Positions 18,556 through 43,492 of a stretch of 64,000 nucleotides of DNA are shown here, in pieces (position 1 is the stretch's first letter; each line of letters opens with the position of its first letter). Location of the stretch: positions 1,448 to 65,447 of the forward strand of contig CAZQLH010000001.1 in NCBI GenBank assembly GCA_964594155.1, given 5' to 3'. A program made the translations under genes and the position numbers. The DNA comes from an uncultured Candidatus Saccharibacteria bacterium (GTDB taxonomy: Bacteria; Patescibacteriota; Minisyncoccia; Portnoybacterales; UBA2143). Below the pieces are notes generated by a model, which saw only the letters and a list, made by a program, of their open reading frames with translations, did not search any database and was not told the DNA's origin.

Positions 18556-19524
18556 ATGATTAAAATAGCTATTAATGGATTTGGCCGGATCGGAAGGTCT
18601 GCTTTTCGGCGGATTTTAGAAAGTCATCCTGAATTAGAAGTGGCGGCTATTAATGATTTGGCTGATAAAGAAACTTTAGCTCATCTTTTAAAATATGATT
18701 CTGTTTATGGAATATATGATCAGCCAATCAAAGCTAAAATTTTAGCTGAAAAAGATCCAGCCCAGCTTCCTTGGAAAGAATTAGAAGTAGATATTGTTTT
18801 AGAATGTACTGGTATTTTTGCTAATCTTGAAGGAGCAGGAAGGCATTTATCAGCTAGGGCAAAAAAAGTTATTATCTCAGCTCCTTGCAAGGGATCTGAT
18901 GTTTCAACCTATGTTTTGGGCGGCAATGAAGATAAATATGATTCTAATAAGGATGATATTGTTTCTATGGGTTCTTGCACAACTAATTGTTATGCGCCAA
19001 TAACCAAAATCCTTCACGAAAATTTTGAAGTGGAAAGAGGATTTATGGTGACTGCCCATGCAGCAACTAATAATCAGAAGATTTTAGATTCTCCGCATAA
19101 GGATTTAAGGCGAGCTAGGTCTGTTTTTAATAATATTATTCCTACAACAAGCGGGTCTGACAAAGCAACTACTGAAGTAATCCCTGAATTAAAAGGGAAA
19201 TTGCATACTATGGCTATGCGAATACCAATACAAGTTGGTTCAGTGATTTATGCAATTTACAACCTTAAGAAAAAGCCATCATCAAAAGAAGTTAATAATG
19301 TAATAAAAGAAGCATCGCAAAGAGAATACAAAAACATTCTTAAATACGAGACCAATCAAATAGTTTCTTCTGATATTGTTGGTTCTAAATATTCAGCAAT
19401 CTTTGACTCATTATTAACCGAAAACAGCGATGATTTGGTAAAAATAGTTGCTTGGTATGATAATGAATATGGATATGCTTGCAGATTAGCAGAATTTGCA
19501 GAATTTATCGGCAAAAAATTATGA
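18556..19524 (+). CDS. gap: glyceraldehyde-3-phosphate dehydrogenase
   Basis: NGFGRIGR NAD motif; SCTTNC active-site Cys. Confidence 0.9.
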   Translation: MIKIAINGFGRIGRSAFRRILESHPELEVAAINDLADKETLAHLLKYDSVYGIYDQPIKAKILAEKDPAQLPWKELEVDIVLECTGIFANLEGAGRHLSARAKKVIISAPCKGSDVSTYVLGGNEDKYDSNKDDIVSMGSCTTNCYAPITKILHENFEVERGFMVTAHAATNNQKILDSPHKDLRRARSVFNNIIPTTSGSDKATTEVIPELKGKLHTMAMRIPIQVGSVIYAIYNLKKKPSSKEVNNVIKEASQREYKNILKYETNQIVSSDIVGSKYSAIFDSLLTENSDDLVKIVAWYDNEYGYACRLAEFAEFIGKKL

Positions 19525-19970
19525 TTTACTTAGGCGCTGATCATGCTGGATTTCATTTAAAGGAAGAAATCAAGAAATATCTTGAAGAATTAGGATATAA
19601 ATATGAGGATTTAGGCAACCAAGAAATGGATCCTCAAGACGACTATCCTGATTTTGCTTTGAAAGTGGCAAATAAAGCGGTTGAAACAAAAGAAAAAGGA
19701 ATTTTAGTTTGTTCAACTGGATTAGGAATGTGTTTAGCGGCTAATAAGGTGAAAGGAGCTCGAGGGGTTGTTGTTTGGGATGAGTTTACAGCTATTCAGT
19801 CAAGAGAGCATAATAATGCTAATATTCTTTGTTTGGCTGGCAAGGTATTGGATTTAGAAACAGCTAAGAAAATTGTTCGCGTTTGGATGGAAACAGAGTT
19901 TAGCGAAGAAGAAAGGCACGTGCGAAGGTTAGAGAAGATTAAAGCTATAGAGATCAAGGAACGTCCTTAA
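19521..19970 (+). CDS. rpiB: ribose-5-phosphate isomerase B
   Basis: MIYLGADHAGF N-terminus typical of RpiB/LacAB. The ATG overlaps the gap stop codon (ATGA). Confidence 0.85.
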   Translation: MIYLGADHAGFHLKEEIKKYLEELGYKYEDLGNQEMDPQDDYPDFALKVANKAVETKEKGILVCSTGLGMCLAANKVKGARGVVVWDEFTAIQSREHNNANILCLAGKVLDLETAKKIVRVWMETEFSEEERHVRRLEKIKAIEIKERP

Positions 19971-19981
19971 GGACGTTCCTT

Positions 19982-20623
19982 ATGATAAATATGATCCAAA
20001 TTATCCCAGCTATTATTTCTCAAGATTTTGAGGAATTGCAGAAGAAAATTAAAAAGGTAGAATCCTATGTTGATTTGGTTCAATTAGATGTAATGGATGG
20101 AAAGTTTGTTGATAACCTAACTTGGAACCAGCCAACTGATTTAAGGAATTTAAAGACCAGTTTAAAATTAGAAGTCCATTTAATGGTTCAAAATCCAGAG
20201 AATATTATTGATGATTGGATTAAATCAGGCATTCAAAGAATTATTTTCCATTATGAATCAACTAAAAATCCAGAAGGGATTATTAAAAGAATAAAGCAAG
20301 CTGGTTTGCAGGTTGGCTTGGCAATTAATCCAGAAACTTCAGTAAAGTCAATAGATGCTTTTATTAATCAACTTGATTTAGTTTTAATTATGACAGTTCA
20401 TCCAGGAAAAGGAGGTCAAGAGTTTTTAGAGGAAACCTTGTGGAAAATTAAGGAATTGCGAGAGGAATATAAAGATGTTAATATAGGGGTAGATGGAGGA
20501 ATAAATTTAGAAACTGCGCCAAAAGTTATTCAAGTTGGCGCCAATATCTTATTCATTGGTTCAGCTATATTCAAAAGCGAAAATATTGAAGAAGCAATTA
20601 AAAAGTTAAAAAATGGATATTAA
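19982..20623 (+). CDS. rpe: ribulose-phosphate 3-epimerase
   Basis: DVMDGKFV and HxMV motifs of Rpe. Confidence 0.85.
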   Translation: MINMIQIIPAIISQDFEELQKKIKKVESYVDLVQLDVMDGKFVDNLTWNQPTDLRNLKTSLKLEVHLMVQNPENIIDDWIKSGIQRIIFHYESTKNPEGIIKRIKQAGLQVGLAINPETSVKSIDAFINQLDLVLIMTVHPGKGGQEFLEETLWKIKELREEYKDVNIGVDGGINLETAPKVIQVGANILFIGSAIFKSENIEEAIKKLKNGY

Positions 20624-21461
20624 AGAATTAGAAAAAAAAGCTAATACAATCAGAAAAGACATTATTGAAATGTTAATGGAAGCTAAGTCCGGCCACTCAG
20701 CCGGTCCTTTAGGTATGGCTGATGTTTTTACTGCTTTGTATTTTGGCAATGTTGTTAAATATGACTATAAGAAACCTGATTGGGAAGGAAGAGATTATGT
20801 AATTCTTTCTAATGCCCATATTTGTCCGGTTTTGTATGCAACAATGGCTCATGCTGAATATTTCCCAGTTGATGAATTGAAAACTTTGCGCAAATTAGGC
20901 AGTCGCTTACAAGGCCATCCACACCGTTTAGAATTGCCAGGAATTGAAACATCAGGCGGTTCTTTAGGACAGGGTTTGTCAATTGCTTGCGGCATGGCTT
21001 ATTCTTTTCATAAATTAGACAAAAAAGATAATTGGGTTTGGGCTTTGACCAGCGATGGCGAACATGATGAAGGCCAGATGTGGGAGGCAGCTATGTTTGC
21101 CGGCAAAAACAAGCTTTTTAATCTTACTCAGATTATGGATAGGAATAATATCCAAATTGACGGCTATACAGAAGATGTTATGCCCTTAGAGCCGTTAAAA
21201 GAAAAATATGAAGCGTTTAACTGGCATGTTTTGGAAGTAGATGGGCATAATATTGAAGAAATTATTAATGCTTGCCATAAATCTAAGAAAATTTTTGAAA
21301 AGCCAGTTTTAATTATTGCTCATACTATTCCAGGCAAGGGCGTTGATTTTATGGAATGGAAATATTCTTGGCATGGAAAGGCGCCTTGTAAAGAAGAAGC
21401 TGATAAAGCTCTTAATTGCTTAAGAACATTAGATGGAAAGATTAAAGGCGAGCATGAGTAA
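20613..21461 (+). CDS. transketolase, N-terminal (TPP-binding) subunit of split enzyme
   Basis: GHSAGPLGMAD..GSLGQGLS TPP-binding region; 282 aa. Confidence 0.85.
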   Translation: MDIKELEKKANTIRKDIIEMLMEAKSGHSAGPLGMADVFTALYFGNVVKYDYKKPDWEGRDYVILSNAHICPVLYATMAHAEYFPVDELKTLRKLGSRLQGHPHRLELPGIETSGGSLGQGLSIACGMAYSFHKLDKKDNWVWALTSDGEHDEGQMWEAAMFAGKNKLFNLTQIMDRNNIQIDGYTEDVMPLEPLKEKYEAFNWHVLEVDGHNIEEIINACHKSKKIFEKPVLIIAHTIPGKGVDFMEWKYSWHGKAPCKEEADKALNCLRTLDGKIKGEHE

Positions 21462-28150: not shown

Positions 28151-28386
28151 AGTTAATTAATAAGCGGGAGCGTGAGAATTCTGACCCTTTGGGGTTCCAA
28201 TGCCCTCCTATTGGAACGGGTTTTATGCCTAAAGGATTCTCACTCTTCTGCTTGTTAGTTGTATTAACAGCAGAGGCATTTCTTTCTATCTTTAATTGGG
28301 TCTAACTCAATTAGTAGTTTTAAGAAATGTTGATTATTAAAATTATAATATACATAAAAGCCCCTTTTGGGGCTTTTATGTTTTTA
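28151..28386 (+). ncRNA. candidate structured RNA B (~235 nt, unknown class; 6S-like possibility)
   Basis: Multiple nested stems (gugagaau/auucucac; uuccaau/auuggaa; cugcuuguua/uaacagcag). Ends at the intrinsic terminator. Confidence 0.3.
28357..28386. terminator. bidirectional intrinsic terminator
   Basis: aaaagcccc-tttt-ggggctttt with flanking T/A runs. Lies downstream of the minus-strand gene at 28416..29045. Confidence 0.7.
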
Positions 28387-28415
28387 ATAATATAATTAAT
28401 AAATAAAGAACTATG

Positions 28416-33887: not shown

Positions 33888-33942
33888 ATGTGATTATATA
33901 TTAACATGCAAAAAACACCCAGGTCAAGTTTTTTTATTCAAG

Positions 33943-34000
33943 AGGACAGTCATAGAAAATGATGTTCTTGGAACAAGGGCGTCATTTTTAGGACTGTCCT
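33943..34000 (-). repeat. island-boundary structured repeat, left copy (inverted relative to right copy)
   Basis: aggacagtc..gactgtcct terminal inverted arms with ~40-nt conserved interior. About 88% identical to the reverse complement of 43027..43084. Confidence 0.75.
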
Positions 34001-34003
34001 CTG

Positions 34004-34144
34004 TTATTTATCTTTTCTCTTCATTATTTTCTGCAGCTTAAAAACGCTCTTGCCTGAGACCTTCATTTTAGGCTTTCTTTTCTTTGCGCGCGTTTTTGCC
34101 TTTTTCTTAGCTTTTTCTTCAATTTGTTCTAAATCATTTTTCAT
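34004..34144 (-). CDS. small Lys-rich basic protein (46 aa)
   Basis: Minus-strand ATG at 34144..34142 preceded by TTGTTA-17-TATAAT (tgatataat). MKNDLEQIEEKAKKKAKTRAKKRKPKMKVSGKSVFKLQKIMKRKDK. Not in the ORF track. Confidence 0.4.
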   Translation of the reverse strand: MKNDLEQIEEKAKKKAKTRAKKRKPKMKVSGKSVFKLQKIMKRKDK

Positions 34145-34309
34145 AAGAAATATTATATCATATAAAAATATCTCTAACAATATCCTTGATATAGCATAAA
34201 TATTATGATATAGTAGTGGAAATAGAATAAATAAAAAATTGACTAAACTGATTAATAAAGGTATGCTTATTTTAGTTCTTTAATGAATTTAACTAAAAGG
34301 AGGGATAAT

Positions 34310-34594
34310 ATGAATCGAGAAATTGAAGCAGATATTCAGGAAGTGGATTTGACTGAATCAGTAAAATATCTTTATAGGATAACTACTCAATTACTGGATG
34401 CGGACAACTTAACTGTTTTACAAAAAGCTAATGTTGAATCAATTAAAACAATCTTTGGGCTTGTTTTAAACACAGTAGTATACCATGCCGCTCTGGAAGA
34501 GATTTGCCGTAAGATATTTGCAGACGCAAAAACAGACGAAGAACGTTTGCGCGCAATAGACAAGTTCTTTGCTGATTTAAAAGACCAAATATAG
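34310..34594 (+). CDS. hypothetical protein (94 aa)
   Basis: AAAGGAGGG RBS then ATG 34310. Confidence 0.55.
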   Translation: MNREIEADIQEVDLTESVKYLYRITTQLLDADNLTVLQKANVESIKTIFGLVLNTVVYHAALEEICRKIFADAKTDEERLRAIDKFFADLKDQI

Positions 34595-34618
34595 TATTTT
34601 CTGCAAAATCTTGAATAC

Positions 34619-34646
34619 AAACCACTGGAAAAACCAGTGGTTTTTA
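34619..34646 (+). terminator. intrinsic terminator
   Basis: aaaccactgg-aaaaa-ccagtggttttt perfect 10-bp stem plus T-run. Confidence 0.8.
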
Positions 34647-34648
34647 AA

Positions 34649-34677
34649 TTGACCAAAGATGGTTATAAGGGTATGAT
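34649..34677 (+). promoter_or_regulatory. promoter TTGACC-17-TATGAT immediately after terminator
   Basis: Part of the recurring tttttaaattgaccaaa junction module. Confidence 0.45.
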
Positions 34678-34688
34678 TAGAAGAGAAT

Positions 34689-34922
34689 ATGATAAAAACT
34701 TGTTTTGAAAAATTTAATAAAAAATTAGACTCTAGAAATAATGTTATTTACGTTTTTATTGATGCGTCTAACTTATGGGAAGCGCAAAAGGCAAAGGGAA
34801 GATTTTTAGATTATGAAAAGACCTTAGAATTAAGGACTGGCGGGGATGGATATTCTGATATATTAAAAATAGATGAGATTTGGGGGAAGGAACTAAGATA
34901 TAGGAAGGAAAAAAATAAATAA
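34689..34922 (+). CDS. hypothetical protein (77 aa)
   Basis: ORF only. Confidence 0.4.
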   Translation: MIKTCFEKFNKKLDSRNNVIYVFIDASNLWEAQKAKGRFLDYEKTLELRTGGDGYSDILKIDEIWGKELRYRKEKNK

Positions 34923-35067
34923 AAACCACCCTCCGCAAGGAAGGTGGCTCTTGGATGTAATACCCTAACGGTTCTATGCCAGAACCGATAGACATTCTAA
35001 GTATATATAATTCGGAAACCATTGTCAAGATTTGTTTTTTATCCACAAGCAAAAAGGTATTAAATCA

Positions 35068-35412
35068 ATGAAAAAATATATATTGCCAATTAGACAAACA
35101 GACCGCGCTACTTATAATCTAATAAAAAGCGGGGAAAAAAGAGTTGAAACACGAGCGGCTAGTCCCAGATATAAAGATATTAAAGATGGAGATATTGTTG
35201 TTTTTAAGTGCGGAAATGATAGTTTTGAGCGTATTGTGAAAAAAGCGCGGAAATTTAATAATGTAGATAAAATACTTGATCATTATGATGTTAAAGATAT
35301 AAATCCAGGCGTTAATACTGTAGAAGAACTTAAATTAATGTATAATTCTTATCCTAATTATGCTGAAAAACTTAAAAAATACGGGATTATAGCATTTGAG
35401 CTTTTAGAGTAG
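35068..35412 (+). CDS. ASCH (PUA-like) domain protein
   Basis: ~115 aa; GEKRVETR..GDIVVF pattern typical of ASCH. Confidence 0.55.
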   Translation: MKKYILPIRQTDRATYNLIKSGEKRVETRAASPRYKDIKDGDIVVFKCGNDSFERIVKKARKFNNVDKILDHYDVKDINPGVNTVEELKLMYNSYPNYAEKLKKYGIIAFELLE

Positions 35413-35430
35413 GTTTGGATTTTCCCGCGA

Positions 35431-36561
35431 ATGCGAGAAAGATTCGCAAAATCAATGAAAACCAAAAAAAACATCAAAACCCCGGAATTAAAAGCCCCAG
35501 CTGGCAATCTTGAAATGGTTAAAAAAGTCATTAAAGCTGGCGCAGACTCTATTTTTATTGGATTAGAGGACTGCAGCAGAAGAAGATATAATGAATTAAC
35601 CTTATTAGAAGCAATTTACGCGACTAAATGGGTTAAGCAAAAAAACAAGAAAATATATATTGCCTTAAACGCAGACATTTCAGATGATGAAATTCAAGGA
35701 GTTCTTGATTTAAGGGTTAAAGAATTAGTTAATAAAGGCGTAGACGGCTTTATTTTAAGGACGCCTAAATTAATGGAAAGAATAAGCAAAGAATACAGAA
35801 GAAAAGGCTATCCAAATTTAGAAGTTGTTGCAAGCGTTGGATGTAATATTCAAACATCAGAACAAATTAAAAAATATGCTGATTATGGAATTTCAACATT
35901 GGTTTTAAGCACAGAACTGTCAAAACGGCCTTATGATGACAAGAAGAAAAATCAATTGATAGAATTAAGGAAAACCGCTGATAAATACAATATTAAACTA
36001 GAGATTCTCAGCGCTTTAACAGCTTGTATTAAAGGTGTTGGAGGCGGCGACGCTAAAGGATGTGATTTATATAAATATGCGGAAAATCTTACTCGTAAAA
36101 TTACTCATGAACATACAGACGGATTTAAGCGTTCATATTTTGATTTTTTTCCGCATAAAGGAGGCGGTTGCTTAAGGTGGTGTAATATTATATTTGATCC
36201 AGAAATTCAGCAGCATATTCTGAATAATGGCGGAAATCAAGATGATATTGATGTATTAGTAAAACACAGAGAAAACAAAACTGGAAATATCAGCATAATA
36301 CATGATTATGAAATTCTTGATTTAATAAAAATTGGAATGGATGTTATAAAAATACAGGGCAGGGAAAATACTCCTCAATGGGCCGCAAAAATAACAAAGA
36401 CAATGAGAAGTATTATTGATAATCCATTGGAATCAGAAGTTGAAAAGCACAAAAAAAGCCTTAAAACACTCAAAAATGATTGGGATAAAAGAAGATTTCA
36501 AGGAGATACAAAACTATTGGCAGAATTTTACAAAAGAACAGGAAAACCCTCCAAGACCTAA
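35431..36561 (+). CDS. peptidase U32 family protein
   Basis: N-terminal ELKAPAGNLE (the U32 E-L-L-A-P-A-G signature). Confidence 0.75.
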   Translation: MRERFAKSMKTKKNIKTPELKAPAGNLEMVKKVIKAGADSIFIGLEDCSRRRYNELTLLEAIYATKWVKQKNKKIYIALNADISDDEIQGVLDLRVKELVNKGVDGFILRTPKLMERISKEYRRKGYPNLEVVASVGCNIQTSEQIKKYADYGISTLVLSTELSKRPYDDKKKNQLIELRKTADKYNIKLEILSALTACIKGVGGGDAKGCDLYKYAENLTRKITHEHTDGFKRSYFDFFPHKGGGCLRWCNIIFDPEIQQHILNNGGNQDDIDVLVKHRENKTGNISIIHDYEILDLIKIGMDVIKIQGRENTPQWAAKITKTMRSIIDNPLESEVEKHKKSLKTLKNDWDKRRFQGDTKLLAEFYKRTGKPSKT

Positions 36562-36598
36562 CATTGAAATTTAAATAATCATTTGTTATAATTACCAT

Positions 36599-36793
36599 AT
36601 GACCAAAGAAGAGTTTTTAAAAATTTACGCCAATATCCCAATTAATCTTCGCAAAGAGATTCTTCTTGTCTTAAAGGATAAAGAACCAATTACTTGGAAT
36701 GTTGCTTATCTTGAAATAAATCAAGATACTCAATTAGGGAAAGAAATTTTAAAAAAATTAGATTTAATATGGGGAAAAAGAAAAAGAAAATAA
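36599..36793 (+). CDS. hypothetical protein (64 aa)
   Basis: ORF only. Confidence 0.4.
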   Translation: MTKEEFLKIYANIPINLRKEILLVLKDKEPITWNVAYLEINQDTQLGKEILKKLDLIWGKRKRK

Positions 36794-37026
36794 AAAAAGA
36801 AATTAAGGATTTAGTTATAGCGCGGCTGGGGGTTTTACCACCAGATAAAAAGATTTCTATCGGCTCATCAGGTGAGTTTACTAAAGATGAGCTAATTGAG
36901 CATGTAGAGAAAGAGGATGTTATTGGAGAGAAGATAACCGAGATTGAATTGGCCTATCTCAAAGCAATAAAAGAAGGTATTTTTTATGAACAAGATTTTT
37001 CTAATTACCAGACCGAAGCACGATGA
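36769..37026 (+). CDS. hypothetical protein (85 aa)
   Basis: ORF only; overlaps its neighbours. Confidence 0.4.
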   Translation: MGKKKKKIKKEIKDLVIARLGVLPPDKKISIGSSGEFTKDELIEHVEKEDVIGEKITEIELAYLKAIKEGIFYEQDFSNYQTEAR

Positions 37027-37630
37027 GACCACTTATTATCTTTTTCATTGGAGTAGAAAGGTGATAGAATTAGCAAAAAGAAAAGGAATTCAGGTTTTAG
37101 ATTTACAAAAAGAAAGGGCTAATAGAAAAGAGCTGACCAGTATTATAAAAAAGAAACAACCCTTTTTTATTTTTCTGAATGGCCATGGCGGGGCTAATTT
37201 TGTTGCCGGAGACGAGGATGAAGTTTTGATAAAAGCCGGCGATAATGAGGGGTTATTGAAATCTAAATTAGTTTATGCTTTATCTTGCCAATCAGCAAAA
37301 GGATTAGGACCAAAAAGCGTTAAAAAAGGAGCTATTAGTTATATTGGTTATGATGATGATTTTGTCTTCGTTTTTGACCAGGCAAAAATTTATAGACCAT
37401 TAGAAGATCTCACAGCAAAATTATTTTTTGATCCCTCAAATCAAATAGTCATTAGTTTATTAAAAGGACATGAAACCGGGGATGCCTATAAAAGATCTCA
37501 AGGGGTGTTTATGAAAAATATCCAGAGCTTATTGACTAGCGAATCATCGGTTGATTCAGTTTATCTTAGATATTTATTGTGGGATATGCAGCATCAAGTT
37601 TGTTTAGGGGATAAAGAGGCTGTTTTCTAA
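36986..37630 (+). CDS. hypothetical protein with caspase-like His..Cys arrangement
   Basis: FLNGHGG followed ~35 aa later by YALSCQSAKG, the His-then-Cys order of clan CD peptidases. Inference only. Confidence 0.45.
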   Translation: MNKIFLITRPKHDETTYYLFHWSRKVIELAKRKGIQVLDLQKERANRKELTSIIKKKQPFFIFLNGHGGANFVAGDEDEVLIKAGDNEGLLKSKLVYALSCQSAKGLGPKSVKKGAISYIGYDDDFVFVFDQAKIYRPLEDLTAKLFFDPSNQIVISLLKGHETGDAYKRSQGVFMKNIQSLLTSESSVDSVYLRYLLWDMQHQVCLGDKEAVF

Positions 37631-37654
37631 TAAAAAAAGTATAGATAAAGCTTC

Positions 37655-37680
37655 AAAATCGTCTTTTTAAGACGGTTTTT
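37655..37680 (+). terminator. intrinsic terminator
   Basis: aaaatcgtc-tttttaa-gacggttttt. Confidence 0.6.
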
Positions 37681-37684
37681 AAAA

Positions 37685-37713
37685 TTGACCAAACACAAGC
37701 AAAAAGGTATTAT
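37685..37713 (+). promoter_or_regulatory. promoter TTGACC-17-TATTAT after terminator
   Basis: Same junction module as at 34641. Contains the 19-mer cacaagcaaaaaggtatta, also found at 35044..35062. Confidence 0.45.
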
Positions 37714-37747
37714 TAAAGTAGAAACTTATGAAATAAGGAGGATTTAA

Positions 37748-38431
37748 ATGAATAAAAAGTTAAAAATTAAAGATTTGCCGCCAATTGATCGCCCAAGAGA
37801 GAAAATGAAAGCTAAAGGCCCGCAAAACCTCAAAGACGCAGAGCTTTTAGCTATTCTTTTAGGAACTGGCTATCAAGGCAAGAATGTTCTTGAATTAGCT
37901 AAATCTATTTTATCTAAATATAGGGGCAAAAAACTGATTTCTTTGAATTACGATGAATTAGTGAAAATAAAGGGGATTAGCCAGGCTAAAGCAGCTATAA
38001 TCCTATCAGCCGTAGAATTAACTAAAAGAGCTTTAAAACATAAAGATGATGATACTTTGCCAATAATCAAGTCAGTTAAAGATGTTGTTGCTCAATCTGT
38101 CTATATGAGGGATAAAAAGAGAGAACATTTCCAAGTCATATACCTTAACGCTAGAAATGAGATGATTGATAAAAAACCAATGTTTGTCGGCACTCTTAAT
38201 GTTAATTTAGTTCATCCAAGAGAAATCTTTGCCAGAGCTGTAGAAAACAATTCTGCATCCATTATTTTAGTTCATAATCATTTATCTAGCGACCCAGAGC
38301 CATCACAGGATGATATTGAAGTTACCAAGCGCATTGTTGAAGCTGGCAAGATAATGGGGATTGAGGTCTTAGATCATGTAATTATAGCTAAAAACAAGTT
38401 TTTCAGCTTTTCGGAGAAAAAATTACTCTAA
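37748..38431 (+). CDS. radC: RadC-like JAB/MPN-domain protein (UPF0758)
   Basis: JAMM-like HNHLSSDPEPSQDD; N-terminal HhH region. Confidence 0.8.
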   Translation: MNKKLKIKDLPPIDRPREKMKAKGPQNLKDAELLAILLGTGYQGKNVLELAKSILSKYRGKKLISLNYDELVKIKGISQAKAAIILSAVELTKRALKHKDDDTLPIIKSVKDVVAQSVYMRDKKREHFQVIYLNARNEMIDKKPMFVGTLNVNLVHPREIFARAVENNSASIILVHNHLSSDPEPSQDDIEVTKRIVEAGKIMGIEVLDHVIIAKNKFFSFSEKKLL

Positions 38432-38568
38432 TTTTTTCGTAGATCCGCCTCTGGAGGAAAAGAAAAGAAATTGATTTAATTTGTAATGTATTTGCGTGAA
38501 TTTGTGTCACTTTTACTAAAAATTCACGGTATATTGACATTTTATCGTGAATTTACTACAATAGTAGT

Positions 38569-39471
38569 ATGACTATATCAAAAGACATTAAAGAAAAAAT
38601 TAATACATTAAAACAAGAATATGATTCTTTAAAGAAAGACAAAGAATCGCTTTTGGATATTGTGTTTGAATCAGAGTTGCCAGAATCTGTCTATAACTCA
38701 AACGCTATTGAAAATTCAACTCTTACTATTTCTGAAACAGAAAAGATTCTTTTAGATATGGAAGTTTCCCGCAATGTATCAGTGCGTGAAGTTTTTGAAG
38801 CAAAAAATTTGGCGCGAGTATTTGAATATATAAGAGGCAAGATAAGCGCGAAAAATGTTGATAAGGAATTTATCTTGCTATTGCATAAGATGTTAATTTC
38901 AAATATAGACGAGGGAATTGCCGGCAGATTTCGGAAACAACATGAATATGTCAGAGTTGGGACGCATATTGCGCCTGCTTCAAAGCATATCAATAATATG
39001 ATTAATGCCATGCTTTTAGAATATTCAAGCCGCCACACAGAATACTTTCTTGAAAAAATTGCCAAATTCCATCTTGAATTTGAACACATTCATCCATTTT
39101 GCGATGGTAATGGAAGAATTGGGCGCGTGTTGATCAACTATCAATTAATACAGCTTGGATTTCCGCCAATTATTATTCGTGATAAGGAAAAAGCCGTTTA
39201 TTACAAATCCTTTGGAGAGTATAGAGATAGTAATAAGAAAAAAACAGCAATTATGAATAAAGTTTTGTTTTTAGCGCTTTTAGAATCTTTTCATAAAAGA
39301 ATCGCTTATTTAAAAGGAGAGAAAATTGTACGACTTTCAGAATACGCTGAAAAGAAAAATGAATCTGCGTCTATTTTTCTCAATAAAGCCAAGCGGCAAA
39401 CCATTCCCGCTTTCCGTGAAAAAGGAATATGGAAAATCGGAAATACTAAAAAAGACAAGAACAGTTCTTAA
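38569..39471 (+). CDS. Fic-family protein (class II, N-terminal autoinhibitory motif)
   Basis: Fic motif HPFCDGNGRIGR. N-terminal SNAIEN matches the [ST]xxxE[GN] inhibitory motif. Confidence 0.85.
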   Translation: MTISKDIKEKINTLKQEYDSLKKDKESLLDIVFESELPESVYNSNAIENSTLTISETEKILLDMEVSRNVSVREVFEAKNLARVFEYIRGKISAKNVDKEFILLLHKMLISNIDEGIAGRFRKQHEYVRVGTHIAPASKHINNMINAMLLEYSSRHTEYFLEKIAKFHLEFEHIHPFCDGNGRIGRVLINYQLIQLGFPPIIIRDKEKAVYYKSFGEYRDSNKKKTAIMNKVLFLALLESFHKRIAYLKGEKIVRLSEYAEKKNESASIFLNKAKRQTIPAFREKGIWKIGNTKKDKNSS

Positions 39472-39485
39472 AAGGACGTCTTAAG

Positions 39486-39553
39486 AGGCCGTGCGTTGAG
39501 AGCTACATCCCTTGCGCTAGTAGGCGAAAGGGTGTACTCGTCAAGGCACGGCC
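39486..39553 (+). other. structured element: 8-bp GC stem (ggccgtgc/gcacggcc) enclosing ~50 nt with inner hairpin
   Basis: Read directly. Lies between the fic stop and the next start; no U-run. Confidence 0.35.
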
Positions 39554-39617
39554 TATGACTCTTAGTTTAAAACCAACCAAACTTCAAACACAGATTAAAA
39601 GGGGATATAATAAGAGC

Positions 39618-39926
39618 ATGATAAAAAACCAAAACAAAATTCACGGATCTATAAATAGCTCTGGCAAAAAAAGCGGTAAATTGCGATACAATAGACTGAG
39701 AATATTAAAAAAACATAAAGGTAAGTTTAAAAAGATTGACAAGATAACTGTTAAGTATCGTGGGGATTCTTTTATAGCACAAATAAACAACAGATTGTTT
39801 AGTGTTTATGGAGAGATTGACGATGATAAAATAGAAGAATGGTTTGGAAATAAATATATAAAAATTAATATTGATATAACTCATTTGTATAATTTAAATA
39901 ATATAGAATTAAAGGAAAAGAAATAA
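39618..39926 (+). CDS. hypothetical protein (102 aa)
   Basis: AAAAGGGGA RBS then ATG 39618. The stop sits at the point where homology to the second YbjQ copy begins. Confidence 0.45.
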   Translation: MIKNQNKIHGSINSSGKKSGKLRYNRLRILKKHKGKFKKIDKITVKYRGDSFIAQINNRLFSVYGEIDDDKIEEWFGNKYIKINIDITHLYNLNNIELKEKK

Positions 39927-39934
39927 AACAAACT

Positions 39935-40201
39935 TTGGGTTTGGTTAGAGGAAATACTATTAGAGCCAAGCATATTGGCAAGGATATTTTAGCTGGCTTA
40001 AGAAGCATTGTTGGCGGAGAGATTAAGGAATACACAGAAGCGTTGTCTAAAGCAAGAGAAGTGGCAATTAAAAGAATGATTGAGCAGGCAAATGAATTAG
40101 GAGCAGATGCGATTATTGGCGTTAGATTTACTACTTCTCAAGTTATGGCTGGCGCAGCTGAATTATTAGTTTATGGAACAGCCGTAAAACTAACTGAATA
40201 A
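39935..40201 (+). CDS. YbjQ/UPF0145-family protein, 5'-truncated duplicate copy (TTG start or pseudogene)
   Basis: 100% nucleotide identity with 42103..42369. Lacks the N-terminal 17 codons and the ATG of the full copy. Confidence 0.5.
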   Translation: MGLVRGNTIRAKHIGKDILAGLRSIVGGEIKEYTEALSKAREVAIKRMIEQANELGADAIIGVRFTTSQVMAGAAELLVYGTAVKLTE

Positions 40202-40292
40202 GGCGGTTTTTATTAAAATAAATAAAGGATTTGGAGGGGTGAGGAGTTCTTAGAAAGAAAAAATCGCCAAGTCGGCGGTTTTTTGATATAAT

Positions 40293-40610
40293 ATGAATAT
40301 GGATAAGGAACAACTATTTTTGAATAAATTACAGAGATGGATGGGCAGGCCTATTTATTATAATAAATATTTTTATTTGGATAAATGGAGTTTTGTTCAT
40401 TTTGTTTTTGGGTTAATCTTGGGATTTATTTTTTCCCGTTATTTTCCTGTTAACTACGCTTGGTTGATTGTCTTGAGTATATTAATAGTTTATGAGCTTT
40501 TTGAAACGGCGATTTCTGGATATCTTTACAGAAAGGAATTGATACTTAATAAAGTTTGGGACATATTGATTGGCATGGCTGGTTTTTTGATTATTTGGCT
40601 CTGGTTTTAA
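40293..40610 (+). CDS. small 3-TM membrane protein (cassette copy 1)
   Basis: ~85% aa identity to the product of 42428..42739. A TATAAT sits immediately upstream of the ATG. Confidence 0.55.
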   Translation: MNMDKEQLFLNKLQRWMGRPIYYNKYFYLDKWSFVHFVFGLILGFIFSRYFPVNYAWLIVLSILIVYELFETAISGYLYRKELILNKVWDILIGMAGFLIIWLWF

Positions 40611-40632
40611 AATATAATCTAAAAATCTAAAT

Positions 40633-41268
40633 ATGAGGAATTTTTCAAGGATTGGTAAAATCTTAATAATTTCTGTTTTGGTTGTTGCTGGCGTATTTGT
40701 TTTTGTTCGTTTTAAAGATAACAATGAATATATTGTTAAAGTAATTAAGGTTATTGACGGAGATACAATTGTTATTGAAGGAGGGGAAATAGTAAGATAT
40801 ATTGGAATTAATGCGCCGGAAACAAGCCAGGATAAGGATGATTGCTTTGCCCAGGAAGCATTTAACGCAAATAAGGAATTAATTGAAGGAAAAGAGGTTA
40901 AATTAAAAAAAGATGTTTCAGAAAAGGATAAATATGGAAGATTGTTAAGATATGTCTGGATTGACGATATTTTTGTTAATGAATATTTAGTTAGGCAGGG
41001 ATATGCTTTATCAGCTGAATATCCTCCTGATACAAAGTATGCAGAGCAGTTTGATAATTTAGAAAAACAAGCTAAAGAAGAAAATTTAGGATTATGGTCT
41101 GCGTGCCAAATTAACGGAATTATCTGTTCTATAAATGCGTATGATTGCTCTGATTTTGAAACACAAAAGGAAGCCCAGGGGATTTATGAGCATTGCGGAG
41201 GCGCAAATAATGATATTCATAAGTTAGATAGTGATAATGATAAAATAGCTTGCGAGAGTTTGTTTTAA
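40633..41268 (+). CDS. secreted thermonuclease (SNase/micrococcal nuclease-like) with C-terminal Excalibur Ca-binding domain
   Basis: N-terminal signal anchor; SNase core (GRLLRYVW..); C-terminal DSDNDKIACE Excalibur motif. Confidence 0.75.
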   Translation: MRNFSRIGKILIISVLVVAGVFVFVRFKDNNEYIVKVIKVIDGDTIVIEGGEIVRYIGINAPETSQDKDDCFAQEAFNANKELIEGKEVKLKKDVSEKDKYGRLLRYVWIDDIFVNEYLVRQGYALSAEYPPDTKYAEQFDNLEKQAKEENLGLWSACQINGIICSINAYDCSDFETQKEAQGIYEHCGGANNDIHKLDSDNDKIACESLF

Positions 41269-41295
41269 AAAATTTAATTAAAAAAGGATAAATTT

Positions 41296-41838
41296 ATGTC
41301 AAAAGAAAACAAACAAGAAGAAAAAGAAATATTAAATCTTTTAGAGGATTATTCCAAAGCATTATCGCTTTTAGAAAAGTATGATAAGGGCAAGTTAAAA
41401 ATTGAAAAAGGAATAAAAGATAAGTTTGTTTTAGAATACAAGAATTCTCAGAATGTTATTTCTGAATTAAAAAAGAATTTAATTGCTAAAAAAGAAGCTA
41501 AAGATGTTTTTGGCAATGAAGCTGGAAGAAGATTTGAAGGCGTAGTTAAAAATATTTACCAAACATTTGACCAGAAAGAGCTATATGAATCAGTTGGAAA
41601 TAAGGCGGCTAATCTTTTGTATTTAACTATAAAGGATCATTATTTTACTGATGGCAATAAACGCATTGGTTCTTTCTTGTTTGTCTATTTTTTAGATAAA
41701 AATGATTATTTGTATCGTGAAAATGGAGAAAAAAGAATAAGCAATAATACTTTAGCTGTTTTAGCCTTGCTTATTGCTGAAAGCAATCCAGAAGAAAAAG
41801 ATCAGATGATAGCGCTTGTTACTCAATTATTGAAATAA
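41296..41838 (+). CDS. Doc-like Fic-family protein (death-on-curing type)
   Basis: HYFTDGNKRIGS matches the Doc/Fic HxFx[DN]GNKR motif. 180 aa with an N-terminal extension. Confidence 0.7.
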   Translation: MSKENKQEEKEILNLLEDYSKALSLLEKYDKGKLKIEKGIKDKFVLEYKNSQNVISELKKNLIAKKEAKDVFGNEAGRRFEGVVKNIYQTFDQKELYESVGNKAANLLYLTIKDHYFTDGNKRIGSFLFVYFLDKNDYLYRENGEKRISNNTLAVLALLIAESNPEEKDQMIALVTQLLK

Positions 41839-41857
41839 AGTATGATATAATAAAAAA

Positions 41858-42055
41858 ATGAAGCCATTGAATATTTTAGGATTAATATTTTTTGCTGTTG
41901 GGGCTTTTGCCCTAATGGGATTTGGTTTTTATGAATTTTTTAGAGATTCAACTATTCCTGCTGTAGTCAGGTGGGGAATTATCGCTATAATATCAGGAAC
42001 AATTATTATTTTAATTTCTCTTATTAAAGAGAGATTAAAGGAAAAAGATTTATGA
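41858..42055 (+). CDS. small 2-TM membrane protein
   Basis: 65 aa, hydrophobic. Confidence 0.4.
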   Translation: MKPLNILGLIFFAVGAFALMGFGFYEFFRDSTIPAVVRWGIIAIISGTIIILISLIKERLKEKDL

Positions 42056-42369
42056 TTCTTACAACTTCATATAGAATCAAAGGAAAAAAAATAGAACAAA
42101 CTTTGGGTTTGGTTAGAGGAAATACTATTAGAGCCAAGCATATTGGCAAGGATATTTTAGCTGGCTTAAGAAGCATTGTTGGCGGAGAGATTAAGGAATA
42201 CACAGAAGCGTTGTCTAAAGCAAGAGAAGTGGCAATTAAAAGAATGATTGAGCAGGCAAATGAATTAGGAGCAGATGCGATTATTGGCGTTAGATTTACT
42301 ACTTCTCAAGTTATGGCTGGCGCAGCTGAATTATTAGTTTATGGAACAGCCGTAAAACTAACTGAATAA
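42052..42369 (+). CDS. YbjQ/UPF0145-family protein (full-length copy)
   Basis: Alignable to the YbjQ family (..GNTIRAKHIGKDILAGLRSIVGGEI..AREVA..ELGADAIIGVRF..GTAVK). Confidence 0.7.
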   Translation: MILTTSYRIKGKKIEQTLGLVRGNTIRAKHIGKDILAGLRSIVGGEIKEYTEALSKAREVAIKRMIEQANELGADAIIGVRFTTSQVMAGAAELLVYGTAVKLTE

Positions 42370-42427
42370 GGATTTTAAAGAAAACAAAAAAATCGCCAAA
42401 GAGGTGGTTTTTTGGTATAATAAAGAT

Positions 42428-42739
42428 ATGCATAAAGAACTAATGTTTTTCAATAAATTACAGAGATGGATGGGCAGGCCTATTTATAATAAGAAATATT
42501 TTTATTTAGATAAATGGAGTTTTGTTCATTTTGTTTTTGGGTTAATCTTTGGATTTATTTTTTCCCGCTATTTTCCTATTGATTATGCCTGGTTGATTGT
42601 ACTGGGTATATTAATAGTTTATGAATTTTTTGAAGTGGCAATTTCTAAATATCTTTATGGAAAAGAATTAATACTTAATAAAATTTGGGATATATTAATT
42701 GGCATGGCTGGTTTCTTGATTATTTGGTTTTGGTTTTAA
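42428..42739 (+). CDS. small 3-TM membrane protein (cassette copy 2)
   Basis: Paralogue of 40293..40610. A TATAAT sits immediately upstream. Confidence 0.55.
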   Translation: MHKELMFFNKLQRWMGRPIYNKKYFYLDKWSFVHFVFGLIFGFIFSRYFPIDYAWLIVLGILIVYEFFEVAISKYLYGKELILNKIWDILIGMAGFLIIWFWF

Positions 42740-42797
42740 AATATAATCTAAATATACATCATTAAATTATTAGATAAACTTTTTTCAAATGTAATTT

Positions 42798-42995
42798 ATG
42801 GAGTGTCAACAAGAAAAAAATCTAAAAGATTGTCCATGTACTTATTCTGATTGTGATAAAAAGGGAATTTGCTGTGAATGCATTAAGTATCATTGGCAGC
42901 GCAATGAATTGCCAGCTTGTTTCTTTTCTAAGGAAGCAGAAAAGACCTATGACAGGTCAATTAAGAAGTTTATTGAAGATCAGGAAAATAGATAA
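42798..42995 (+). CDS. small Cys-rich protein (65 aa, 9 Cys)
   Basis: [22 protein letters not shown]. The last gene before the right island repeat. Confidence 0.45.
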
Positions 42996-43026
42996 GAGAT
43001 TTGAAAGAAAAGCTCTTAATAACCTA

Positions 43027-43084
43027 AGGACAGTCCTTAAAATGACGTCCTTGTTCCAAGAACATCATTTTGAAAGACTGTCCT
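43027..43084 (+). repeat. island-boundary structured repeat, right copy
   Basis: aggacagtcc..agactgtcct. See the left copy at 33943..34000. Confidence 0.75.
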
Positions 43085-43150
43085 TTAGAATAAAAAAGAG
43101 GTTAATTGTTTTACAATTAGCCTCTTTATTTTGTGTTTGCGAGATGAGAT

Positions 43151-43492
43151 TTAATCAGTACTGAATGGAATGGAGAAATTCCGGAGTTGCGTCCACGGCT
43201 TGTTTTCCTTGATTTGCCCTTTTTCTGCCTCTTGAGAAGCTTCTTCTAAAATTTCTTCTAAGGCAGATCCGATAAATTGGGCAATATGGCGGCAAGGAAG
43301 CTTTTTTTCAAGAACGTTGTTTTCTGTGATTTGCACTGGAATAACCTGCCCGTTGATTTTTTGGTTGCAGACCATTTCAGCTTTTATCCGGATATGGTAT
43401 CTTGCGTCTCTAAAAGTCACGAATCCGTGAAAGCTATCATAGCTTTCATTGTTTTTTCCAGTAAATTTATGCCATTTTCTTATTTCTGCCAT
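43151..43492 (-). CDS. hypothetical protein (113 aa)
   Basis: ORF with upstream GGAGG. Confidence 0.5.
   Translation of the reverse strand: MAEIRKWHKFTGKNNESYDSFHGFVTFRDARYHIRIKAEMVCNQKINGQVIPVQITENNVLEKKLPCRHIAQFIGSALEEILEEASQEAEKGQIKENKPWTQLRNFSIPFSTD

Follow-up and report, generated by a model that had tools for sequence, protein, structure and literature searches.

The stretch of DNA analysed here (the window) is a 64-kb part of contig CAZQLH010000001.1 from an uncultured bacterium, and it carries two inverted copies of a short hairpin-forming repeat. The left copy lies between a small Lys-rich open reading frame (ORF) and the promoter of a gene for a Phage_holin_4_2-family membrane protein, which is followed outward by SecG, and the right copy lies between a small Cys-rich ORF and a 113-aa ORF that is followed by a Band_7/SPFH gene. 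The original prediction had read the two copies as the ends of a mobile or recombining accessory island of about 9 kb. The results suggest that the repeats are probably members of a dispersed family of nested palindromes in a Portnoybacteria-like lineage of the Patescibacteria, or candidate phyla radiation (CPR), and that they resemble REPINs, that is, inverted doublets of repetitive extragenic palindromes (REPs), while the DNA between the two conserved gene blocks is best described as a long-standing variable zone and not as a unit delimited by the repeats.

A repeat search of the window showed that the inverted pair, described earlier as about 58 nt long, extends to 71 nt (33930-34000 against 43027-43097), with 90% complementarity and a separation of 9026 nt, and that it is the longest and by far the best inverted pair in the window. 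The 33-nt interior AAAATGACGYCCTTGTTCCAAGAACATCATTTT occurs exactly twice, at 33956-33988 (-) and 43039-43071 (+), with 0 occurrences expected from 100 shuffles, and the arms AGGACAGTC/GACTGTCCT and the tail GAATAAAAAA are present as they had been described. Both copies fold as a long hairpin from either strand (z of -6.5 to -8.7), and 0 of 200 shuffles folded equally well, which bears out the structured nature claimed for them; a comparison with known RNA families gave only sub-threshold microRNA-hairpin noise. The right-copy arms AAGGACAGTCCTT and AAGGACTGTCCTT are each palindromic and are mutually inverted around a spacer of 33 nt, as in a REPIN doublet. The window element consists of two inverted 13-nt palindromic REP-like units (AAGGAC-A/T-GTCCTT) around AAAATGAYG..stem..loop..stem..CRTCATTTT, and the whole is predicted to fold as a hairpin of about 27 bp when the DNA or RNA is single-stranded.

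A miniature relative at 19956-19981, which was not part of the earlier account, is made of two inverted 13-nt REP-like units with zero spacer (Table 1). The stop codon of gene 19479..19970 falls within it. Its last base lies 1 nt before the ATG at 19982, the start of gene 19982..20623, and it puts an AAGGA motif 8 nt upstream of that start codon. The ORF called at 42853..43164 is a spurious read-through across the right palindrome.

A dispersed family of nested palindromes in related genomes

An exact scan with a degenerate core pattern, using one genome per species, found 15 copies on 12 contigs of the metagenome-assembled genome (MAG) CAZYSH01, which is labelled Saccharibacteria, and 1 further copy in another Patescibacteria MAG. 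The same pattern gave 1 copy in a metagenome set that does not include the JGI contigs of the window organism (locus L021, adjoining a DNA methyltransferase gene) and zero matches in viral contigs. Matches in Algoriphagus, Poribacteria and Paenibacillus were rejected as chance, their arms being missing. A profile hidden Markov model and then a covariance model built from 22 copies were used to search 302 kb of related loci from Portnoybacteria-like Patescibacteria, and at a cut-off of E<=0.01 the covariance model identified 57 distinct sites. The model matched 33 times in 15 CAZYSH01 loci (about 117 kb), 9 times in L042 (15 kb) and 6 times in L044 (22 kb). The copies of CAZYSH01 sit in very short spacers, 4-40 nt from the adjacent genes, and these genes are co-directional or convergent. 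Contig 7 of this MAG (L026) is syntenic with the window from 13.2 to 21.5 kb at 60-85% protein identity, so that CAZYSH01 is a true relative of the window organism; judged by the flanking ABC substrate-binding protein and the Band_7 protein, the nearest named relatives are Candidatus Portnoybacteria (Patescibacteria/CPR), at 82-88% identity. The right window copy is identical at 61/63 positions to the copy of L034 (MAG JAHJUH01) and at 60/63 to that of L021, compared with 55/63 to the left window copy, and because it is closer to copies of other genomes than to its neighbour, the two window copies are no special pair.

All subfamilies share one plan, in which a palindromic outer arm is followed by AAAATGA...TCATTTT, a variable inner stem and a variable loop. 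The outer-arm palindrome is AAGGAC-A-GTCCTT in the window, AAGGACGTTCCTT in CAZYSH01, GAGGCATCGTCCTG in L042 and GAGGCGTCGCCCTT in L044, and the inner stems vary by subfamily yet stay complementary (CCCTTGC/GCAAGGG, CCCTCCGGC/GCCGAGAGGG, TACCCTTTG/CAAAGGGTA). On the model alignment, 95.7% of cells pair, compared with 76.4% for shuffles and 36-49% for slid-partner controls, and on this model-based alignment 18 of 20 pairs changed on both sides. RNAalifold applied to a MAFFT alignment of all subfamilies returned only 5 pairs because one-column register shifts (bulges) separate the subfamilies, a problem that disappeared once only the asymmetric subfamilies were used and the covariance model served for the alignment.

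The two strands of the hairpin also differ. In every imperfect subfamily one strand folds better than the other by 7-16 kcal/mol, and one U.G pair, which is C.A on the opposite strand, is invariant in 22/22 asymmetric copies. The favoured G-U strand is antisense to the upstream gene for both window copies and in L021, L029 and L048, and is sense at several copies of L042 and L044. Asymmetric copies are co-oriented regardless of gene direction in L042 (6/6), L044 (6/6), L030 (2/2) and L048 (2/2); the window pair is opposed. The G-U strand is tied neither to gene direction nor, within the window, to the GC-skew strand. A GTAG tag is not present, and CGTC, found in most copies (CGTCATTTT), is base-paired in the inner stem.

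Comparison of orthologous sites revealed gain and loss of elements. Genes 19982..20623 and 20613..21461 overlap in the window; in L026 an element (437-504) stands between their orthologues and encodes the last seven codons and the stop of its upstream gene. The miniature palindrome of the window has no counterpart at the orthologous L026 junction. An element between the holin-family gene and secG is present in L042 and L044 and absent from the window and L041. The Lys-rich ORF is kept beside the holin-family gene in all relatives examined, and at the site of the left copy, between this ORF and the holin-family promoter, L042 and L044 each carry a member of their own genome's subfamily and L041 carries a palindrome different again. 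At this one orthologous intergenic site the window, L041, L042 and L044 therefore each have a different subfamily, which points to genome-specific types.

Several single copies have features of their own. The element at L025 4366-4440 lies within a 568-aa ORF without a Pfam match, an arrangement that could reflect an in-frame insertion or two genes fused by read-through; the palindrome has one reading frame open in both directions. Upstream of the holin-family gene, L042 2740-2930 holds a full element with a duplicated left arm and two extra tandem right halves with tail. In several genomes the terminal 8-9-mer of many copies is repeated directly once more, a few bases beyond the hairpin.

Relatives also carry a gene of the type that mobilises REPINs elsewhere, a REP-associated tyrosine transposase (RAYT). 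In CAZYSH01 a Y1_Tnp gene (L023 3-551, cut by the start of the locus) matched PF01797 with 36.3 bits against a cut-off of 23, and its best NCBIfam match was the REP-associated tyrosine transposase at 47.8 bits, below the equivalog cut-off of 80, the query being N-terminally truncated. The gene was found through a weak double match in a tblastn search with IS200, IS608, E. coli RAYT and IntI1 queries; these queries otherwise gave nothing convincing, and an apparent second match in L033 was spurious. The gene product has the HUH motif (NHYHFLL) and the tyrosine motif (YIHLNP), neither of which varies among eight aligned homologues. Across Parcubacteria, homologues of about 230 aa are widespread, and in the closest lineages the gene lies between rpoB and rpoC (L049 2474-10450, L051, L052, L054, L055). 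This slot is a fixed, housekeeping-like position across several related CPR lineages. In L049, L051-L055, L056 and L023 a single RAYT-like gene is flanked by REPs of its own genome, which are RAGG-N5-7-CCTY palindromes on both sides and often form inverted doublets. Four RAYT lineages have four different flanking REPs (Table 1), so that the REP co-varies with the RAYT lineage. The flanking palindromes also occur elsewhere in the same genomes, the CAZYSH type for instance at L026 2583-2616, and this type is similar to the arms of one nested subfamily, GAGGCCGTACCTC. L056 and one contig of the window organism are from the same sample.

Each RAYT-like coding sequence also contains the REP specific to its own genome (L049 6190-6204, L051 3691-3707, L054 4273-4289, L056 894-906 and L023 52-64). 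This internal REP always falls in the sole hypervariable segment (alignment columns ~58-77) of an otherwise highly conserved protein, and it changes in step with the flanking REPs.

The variable zone between the two window copies

The outward-directed small ORFs named in the original prediction were found next to the repeats, and of its gene labels those for ASCH, RadC, Fic/Doc, SNase and YbjQ were matched by Pfam (ASCH, Peptidase_U32, RadC, Fic x2, SNase+Excalibur and YbjQ_1 x2 between the copies); the label 'caspase-like' was not borne out in this way, the 214-aa ORF concerned (36986..37630) having no Pfam match. The absence of a transposase or integrase between the copies held in both Pfam and tblastn searches. 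G+C content and GC skew between the copies are ordinary for the window.

In relatives the left block, PfkB...FBA-Fer4-L25-SLT...RNase J-GPI-SBP-SecG-holin-Lys-rich ORF, is kept at 69-82% identity, and past the Lys-rich ORF the gene content differs in every relative. Since this conserved block ends at the Lys-rich ORF, it reaches past the left copy into the proposed island. The right block, Band_7-108aa-EngB...GroES/EL, is likewise conserved, and upstream of Band_7 the relatives have differing genes, among which SNase, a 65aa-YbjQ-membrane trio, ASCH, Fic and XseAB recur; SNase, 65aa-YbjQ, ASCH and Fic lie there in L046 and L047. The window RadC is 72% identical to the RadC of the variable region of L044, which is similar to core-gene identity. 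The two core blocks are never adjacent in the relatives examined.

The holin-family promoter next to the left copy is kept in relatives as TTGAC-17/18-TAnAAT. Within the zone, the duplicated YbjQ and membrane-protein pair (Table 1) flanks the SNase-Doc-65aa genes and is a break point in many metagenome assemblies of the window organism; the near-identity of its first part, against 87% in the next, suggests a recent gene conversion over part of its length. A strong terminator-like hairpin at 34921-34952 (-), with 14 pairs and a T run, lies directly after the 77-aa (+) ORF, and the genes called around it lie on the plus strand. Elsewhere in the window, a 35-nt near-perfect inverted repeat at 28330-28403 (GGGGC core, 80% complementary, 4-nt gap) is situated between convergent genes and resembles a bidirectional terminator; the corresponding spacer of L041 holds a member of the palindromic-repeat family (L041 10908-10984).

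Table 1. Positions of the repeats, neighbouring features and RAYT-flanking palindromes
Feature	Position	Strand	Description
Left REPIN-like element	33930..34001	+ (best-folding, G-U strand)	Covariance model 80.3 bits +, 43.3 bits -; outer palindromic REP units GAGGACAGTC.. / ..GACTGTCCTC, inner palindrome, T-rich/ATTC 5' flank
Right REPIN-like element	43026..43097	- (best-folding, G-U strand)	Covariance model 83.6 bits -, 48.8 bits +; arms AAGGACAGTCCTT / AAGGACTGTCCTT-like, inner palindrome AAAATGACGTCCTTGTTCCAAGAACATCATTTT, tail GAATAAAAAA
Miniature relative	19956..19981	none	26-nt perfect palindrome, halves AAGGAACGTCCTT and AAGGACGTTCCTT; E 0.024
Possible decayed tandem REP-like motifs	39455..39495	+	AAGAACAGTTCTT, AAGGACGTCTT, GAGGCCGTGC; 3' end of Fic gene; weak, E 0.06
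Lys-rich 46-aa ORF	34004..34144 (alternatively ..34180)	-	Ends 3 nt from left copy
DUF6485 Cys-rich 65-aa ORF	42798..42995	+	Ends 31 nt from right copy
Promoter-like site	33898..33927	-	TTGACC-18-TAATAT with TG; for Phage_holin_4_2-family gene; abuts tail of left element
Canonical intrinsic-terminator-like hairpin with T run	43095..43127	+	Immediately after right element
Variable-zone genes	34283..42995	+	Content partly recurs, partly differs in relatives; order: 103 aa, 77 aa, ASCH, U32 peptidase, 64 aa, 85 aa, 214 aa, RadC, Fic, then 123 aa, YbjQ, membrane protein, SNase, Doc/Fic, 65 aa, YbjQ, membrane protein, DUF6485
Internal direct duplication, YbjQ and membrane-protein pair	39901..40557 and 42069-42686	+ (first copy)	First 300 nt 99% identical, next 300 nt 87%
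RAYT-flanking palindrome	L049		TTTGGGCGCG(T/A)CGCGCCCAAA
RAYT-flanking palindrome	L051/52		ACTGAGGAGTG(C/G)CACTCCTCAGT
RAYT-flanking palindrome	L054/55		TTAGGAGC(TTT/AAA)GCTCCTAA
RAYT-flanking palindrome	L056/L023		GGAGGT(ACG/CGT)ACCTCC

Proposed mechanism and alternative explanations

By analogy with known REPIN/RAYT systems, a single-copy HUH/Y1 RAYT would recognise the folded REP on single-stranded DNA, as E. coli TnpA-REP and IS200/IS605 transposases recognise hairpins in single strands (PMC6006769), and would occasionally copy the element into a short intergenic spacer; the copies would then persist, pass vertically and co-evolve with the genome's own RAYT. The observations comprise the family itself, the covariation of its hairpin, the asymmetry of its strands, elements gained and lost at orthologous sites, types specific to each genome and, in relatives, the REP-flanked RAYT-like gene, and the published definition of REPIN/RAYT systems matches these features of the relatives (PMC3337134, PMC5581495). 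The window organism itself presumably has or once had such a RAYT, which would move these elements. Several points weigh against this reading. No RAYT of the window organism was found in the part of its genome that could be searched, the window and its +/-10-kb flanks, and the nearest homologues come from other organisms; the match of the truncated L023 gene lies below the equivalog cut-off; and the REP flanking the CAZYSH RAYT (GGAGGTCGTACCTCC) differs from the arm type of the window (AAGGACAGTCCTT), only the general form being common to both. Full family copies in the window number only two, to which the covariance model adds the miniature palindrome alone, and the multi-copy state is that shown for relatives. 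The alignment behind the covariation counts is fitted to the model and has palindromic copies in it with both of their strands, the copies gave no unpaired 5' tag of GTAG or CGTC, and no clean target-site signature was found for the elements: no direct repeat recurs consistently in the flanks of 13 CAZYSH copies, and the AT/AT pairs at some of them are ambiguous as target-site duplications because they are also palindromic extensions.

The island reading takes the two copies as terminal inverted repeats of a non-autonomous 9-kb unit, either composite or flanked by miniature inverted-repeat transposable elements (MITEs), that moves or inverts. It draws on the inverted, 90% complementary copies, on the mostly accessory-type genes between them and on the variation in gene content between the core blocks among relatives, and a structured MITE-like element in a zone that is variable among relatives is the part of the original prediction that stood. 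As in a composite transposon or MITE-flanked island, inverted copies bracket accessory genes; unlike in such units, there is here no target-site duplication, transposase or presence and absence of the unit, and conserved genes span the boundary. The repeat family is dispersed over many unrelated intergenic sites in related genomes, an observation that the original prediction had itself set against its island, and the right copy is nearer to other genomes' copies than to the left one. The Lys-rich ORF on the inner side of the left boundary is conserved, relatives have the left site filled as well, genes for RadC, SNase, YbjQ, ASCH and Fic turn up again in relatives close to these blocks, and the composition of the interval is ordinary. 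The outer flanks (...GGTCAAGT on the left, GAGGTTAA... on the right) share no direct repeat, and no transposase or integrase lies inside. As for presence and absence of the block, all 20 metagenome contigs of the same organism (among them the ENA assemblies SUTE22-1 and SCRA20-1 and several JGI metagenomes) carry it with identical gene order and identical repeat copies, 0/20 with an empty or inverted 9-kb arrangement, and relatives never join the holin block to the Band_7 block. The copies are thus very improbable as ends of a mobile or recombining unit; they are independent insertions that happen to lie near the edges of the variable zone.

Two further explanations concern the elements themselves. 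They could be host-maintained 3'-end hairpins acting at the RNA level, as mRNA stabilisers, RNase III sites or U-tract-less terminators or insulators, with mobility secondary or extinct. Copies do stand just after stop codons, the left copy fits exactly into the gap from the Lys-rich ORF stop to the -35 of the following promoter, in L042 and L044 as in the window, the G-U wobble pairs are conserved on one strand, and transcription of REPs and a role for them as RNA elements have been reported from other bacteria (PMC3733652). However, the G-U strand is the sense strand at some copies and antisense at others, the hairpin lacks a T run after it, the elements were unflagged in the terminator scan, a canonical terminator stands beside the right copy, and genome-specific concerted types with filled and empty sites are not expected of ordinary terminators, so that we regard this explanation as unlikely, though worth keeping in view. 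The narrower reading as intrinsic terminators was rejected, as none of the 12 terminator-like sites is one of the elements and the canonical terminator at 43095-43127 is a separate feature. Alternatively, the elements could be integron attC sites and the variable zone an integrase-less cassette array, similar to clusters of attC sites lacking integron-integrases (CALIN). Imperfect palindromes of conserved structure and variable sequence, genome-specific types and, in L042 and L044, co-oriented copies between small ORFs would fit this, but RYYYAAC/GTTRRRY cores are missing from the element ends, copies are also found all over the genome between housekeeping genes, the two in the window are inverted rather than co-oriented, and 350 kb gave no tyrosine-recombinase match in a weak test with an IntI1 query. 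An integron origin is accordingly hardly credible.

Beyond the assignment of the two repeats to a REPIN-like family, one can tentatively entertain the broader possibility that Portnoybacteria-like CPR, for all the small size and streamlining of their genomes, carry an ancient, vertically inherited REPIN-RAYT system of unusual form, with the RAYT fixed between rpoB and rpoC and holding its own REP inside, nested REPINs with a strand-marking wobble, and co-orientation over about 10 kb. If so, the internal REP may permit self-recognition or autoregulation of the RAYT, the co-orientation on 10-kb scales may be consistent with replication-strand-specific insertion, and the opposed window copies may mark the sides of a plasticity zone whose accessory genes are turned over with the help of REPIN-mediated recombination.

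Comparison with known systems

REPIN/RAYT systems have been studied almost only in Proteobacteria, and as far as the searchable literature shows a REPIN-like family is new to the Patescibacteria/CPR phylum, since no literature linking REPIN/RAYT to it was found. The repeats fill most of the intergenic space in these compact genomes, and because the genomes are extremely compact, repeats that fill spacers, supply stops and adjoin promoters likely affect gene expression and rearrangement. Bracketing of a region by two members of a dispersed family is expected anyway, and the DNA bracketed here is no mobile unit. The family also explains oddities of assembly and annotation in these MAGs, such as spurious read-through ORFs across palindromes.

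MITEs such as the Correia elements of Neisseria and the palindromic elements of Rickettsia are short, non-coding palindromes repeated within or next to genes, to which some copies contribute stop codons or coding sequence. The L026 element, which supplies the last seven codons and the stop of its upstream gene, is alike in this respect; unlike in those families, there is here no DDE-type terminal inverted repeat with target-site duplication, and the elements are much shorter (about 60-75 nt). The GTAG- and CGTC-tagged REP superfamilies (PMC3733652) share with the present family small palindromes, often in opposed pairs, that form larger folds downstream of ORFs, and a CGTC motif occurs in most copies here, although in the present elements it is paired in the inner stem and is not an unpaired end tag.

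The closest likeness is to the REPINs mobilised by RAYTs that have been described in Pseudomonas and Enterobacteria (PMC3116915, PMC3337134, PMC5581495). Common to both are short palindromic units inverted around a spacer and folding into a long hairpin, a position outside genes, most often behind them and where the neighbours are co-directional or convergent, genome-specific types that persist at orthologous sites with gain and loss elsewhere, and, in related genomes, one Y1/HUH transposase gene flanked by REPs. The present family differs in that no GTAG tag was seen, in that the spacer is itself palindromic and conserved (AAAATGAYG...CRTCATTTT), one wobble or mismatch in it being invariant, in that the host is a CPR bacterium of ultra-small size whose genes are very tightly spaced, and in that the RAYT-like gene of its relatives lies between rpoB and rpoC and carries its own REP within the coding sequence.

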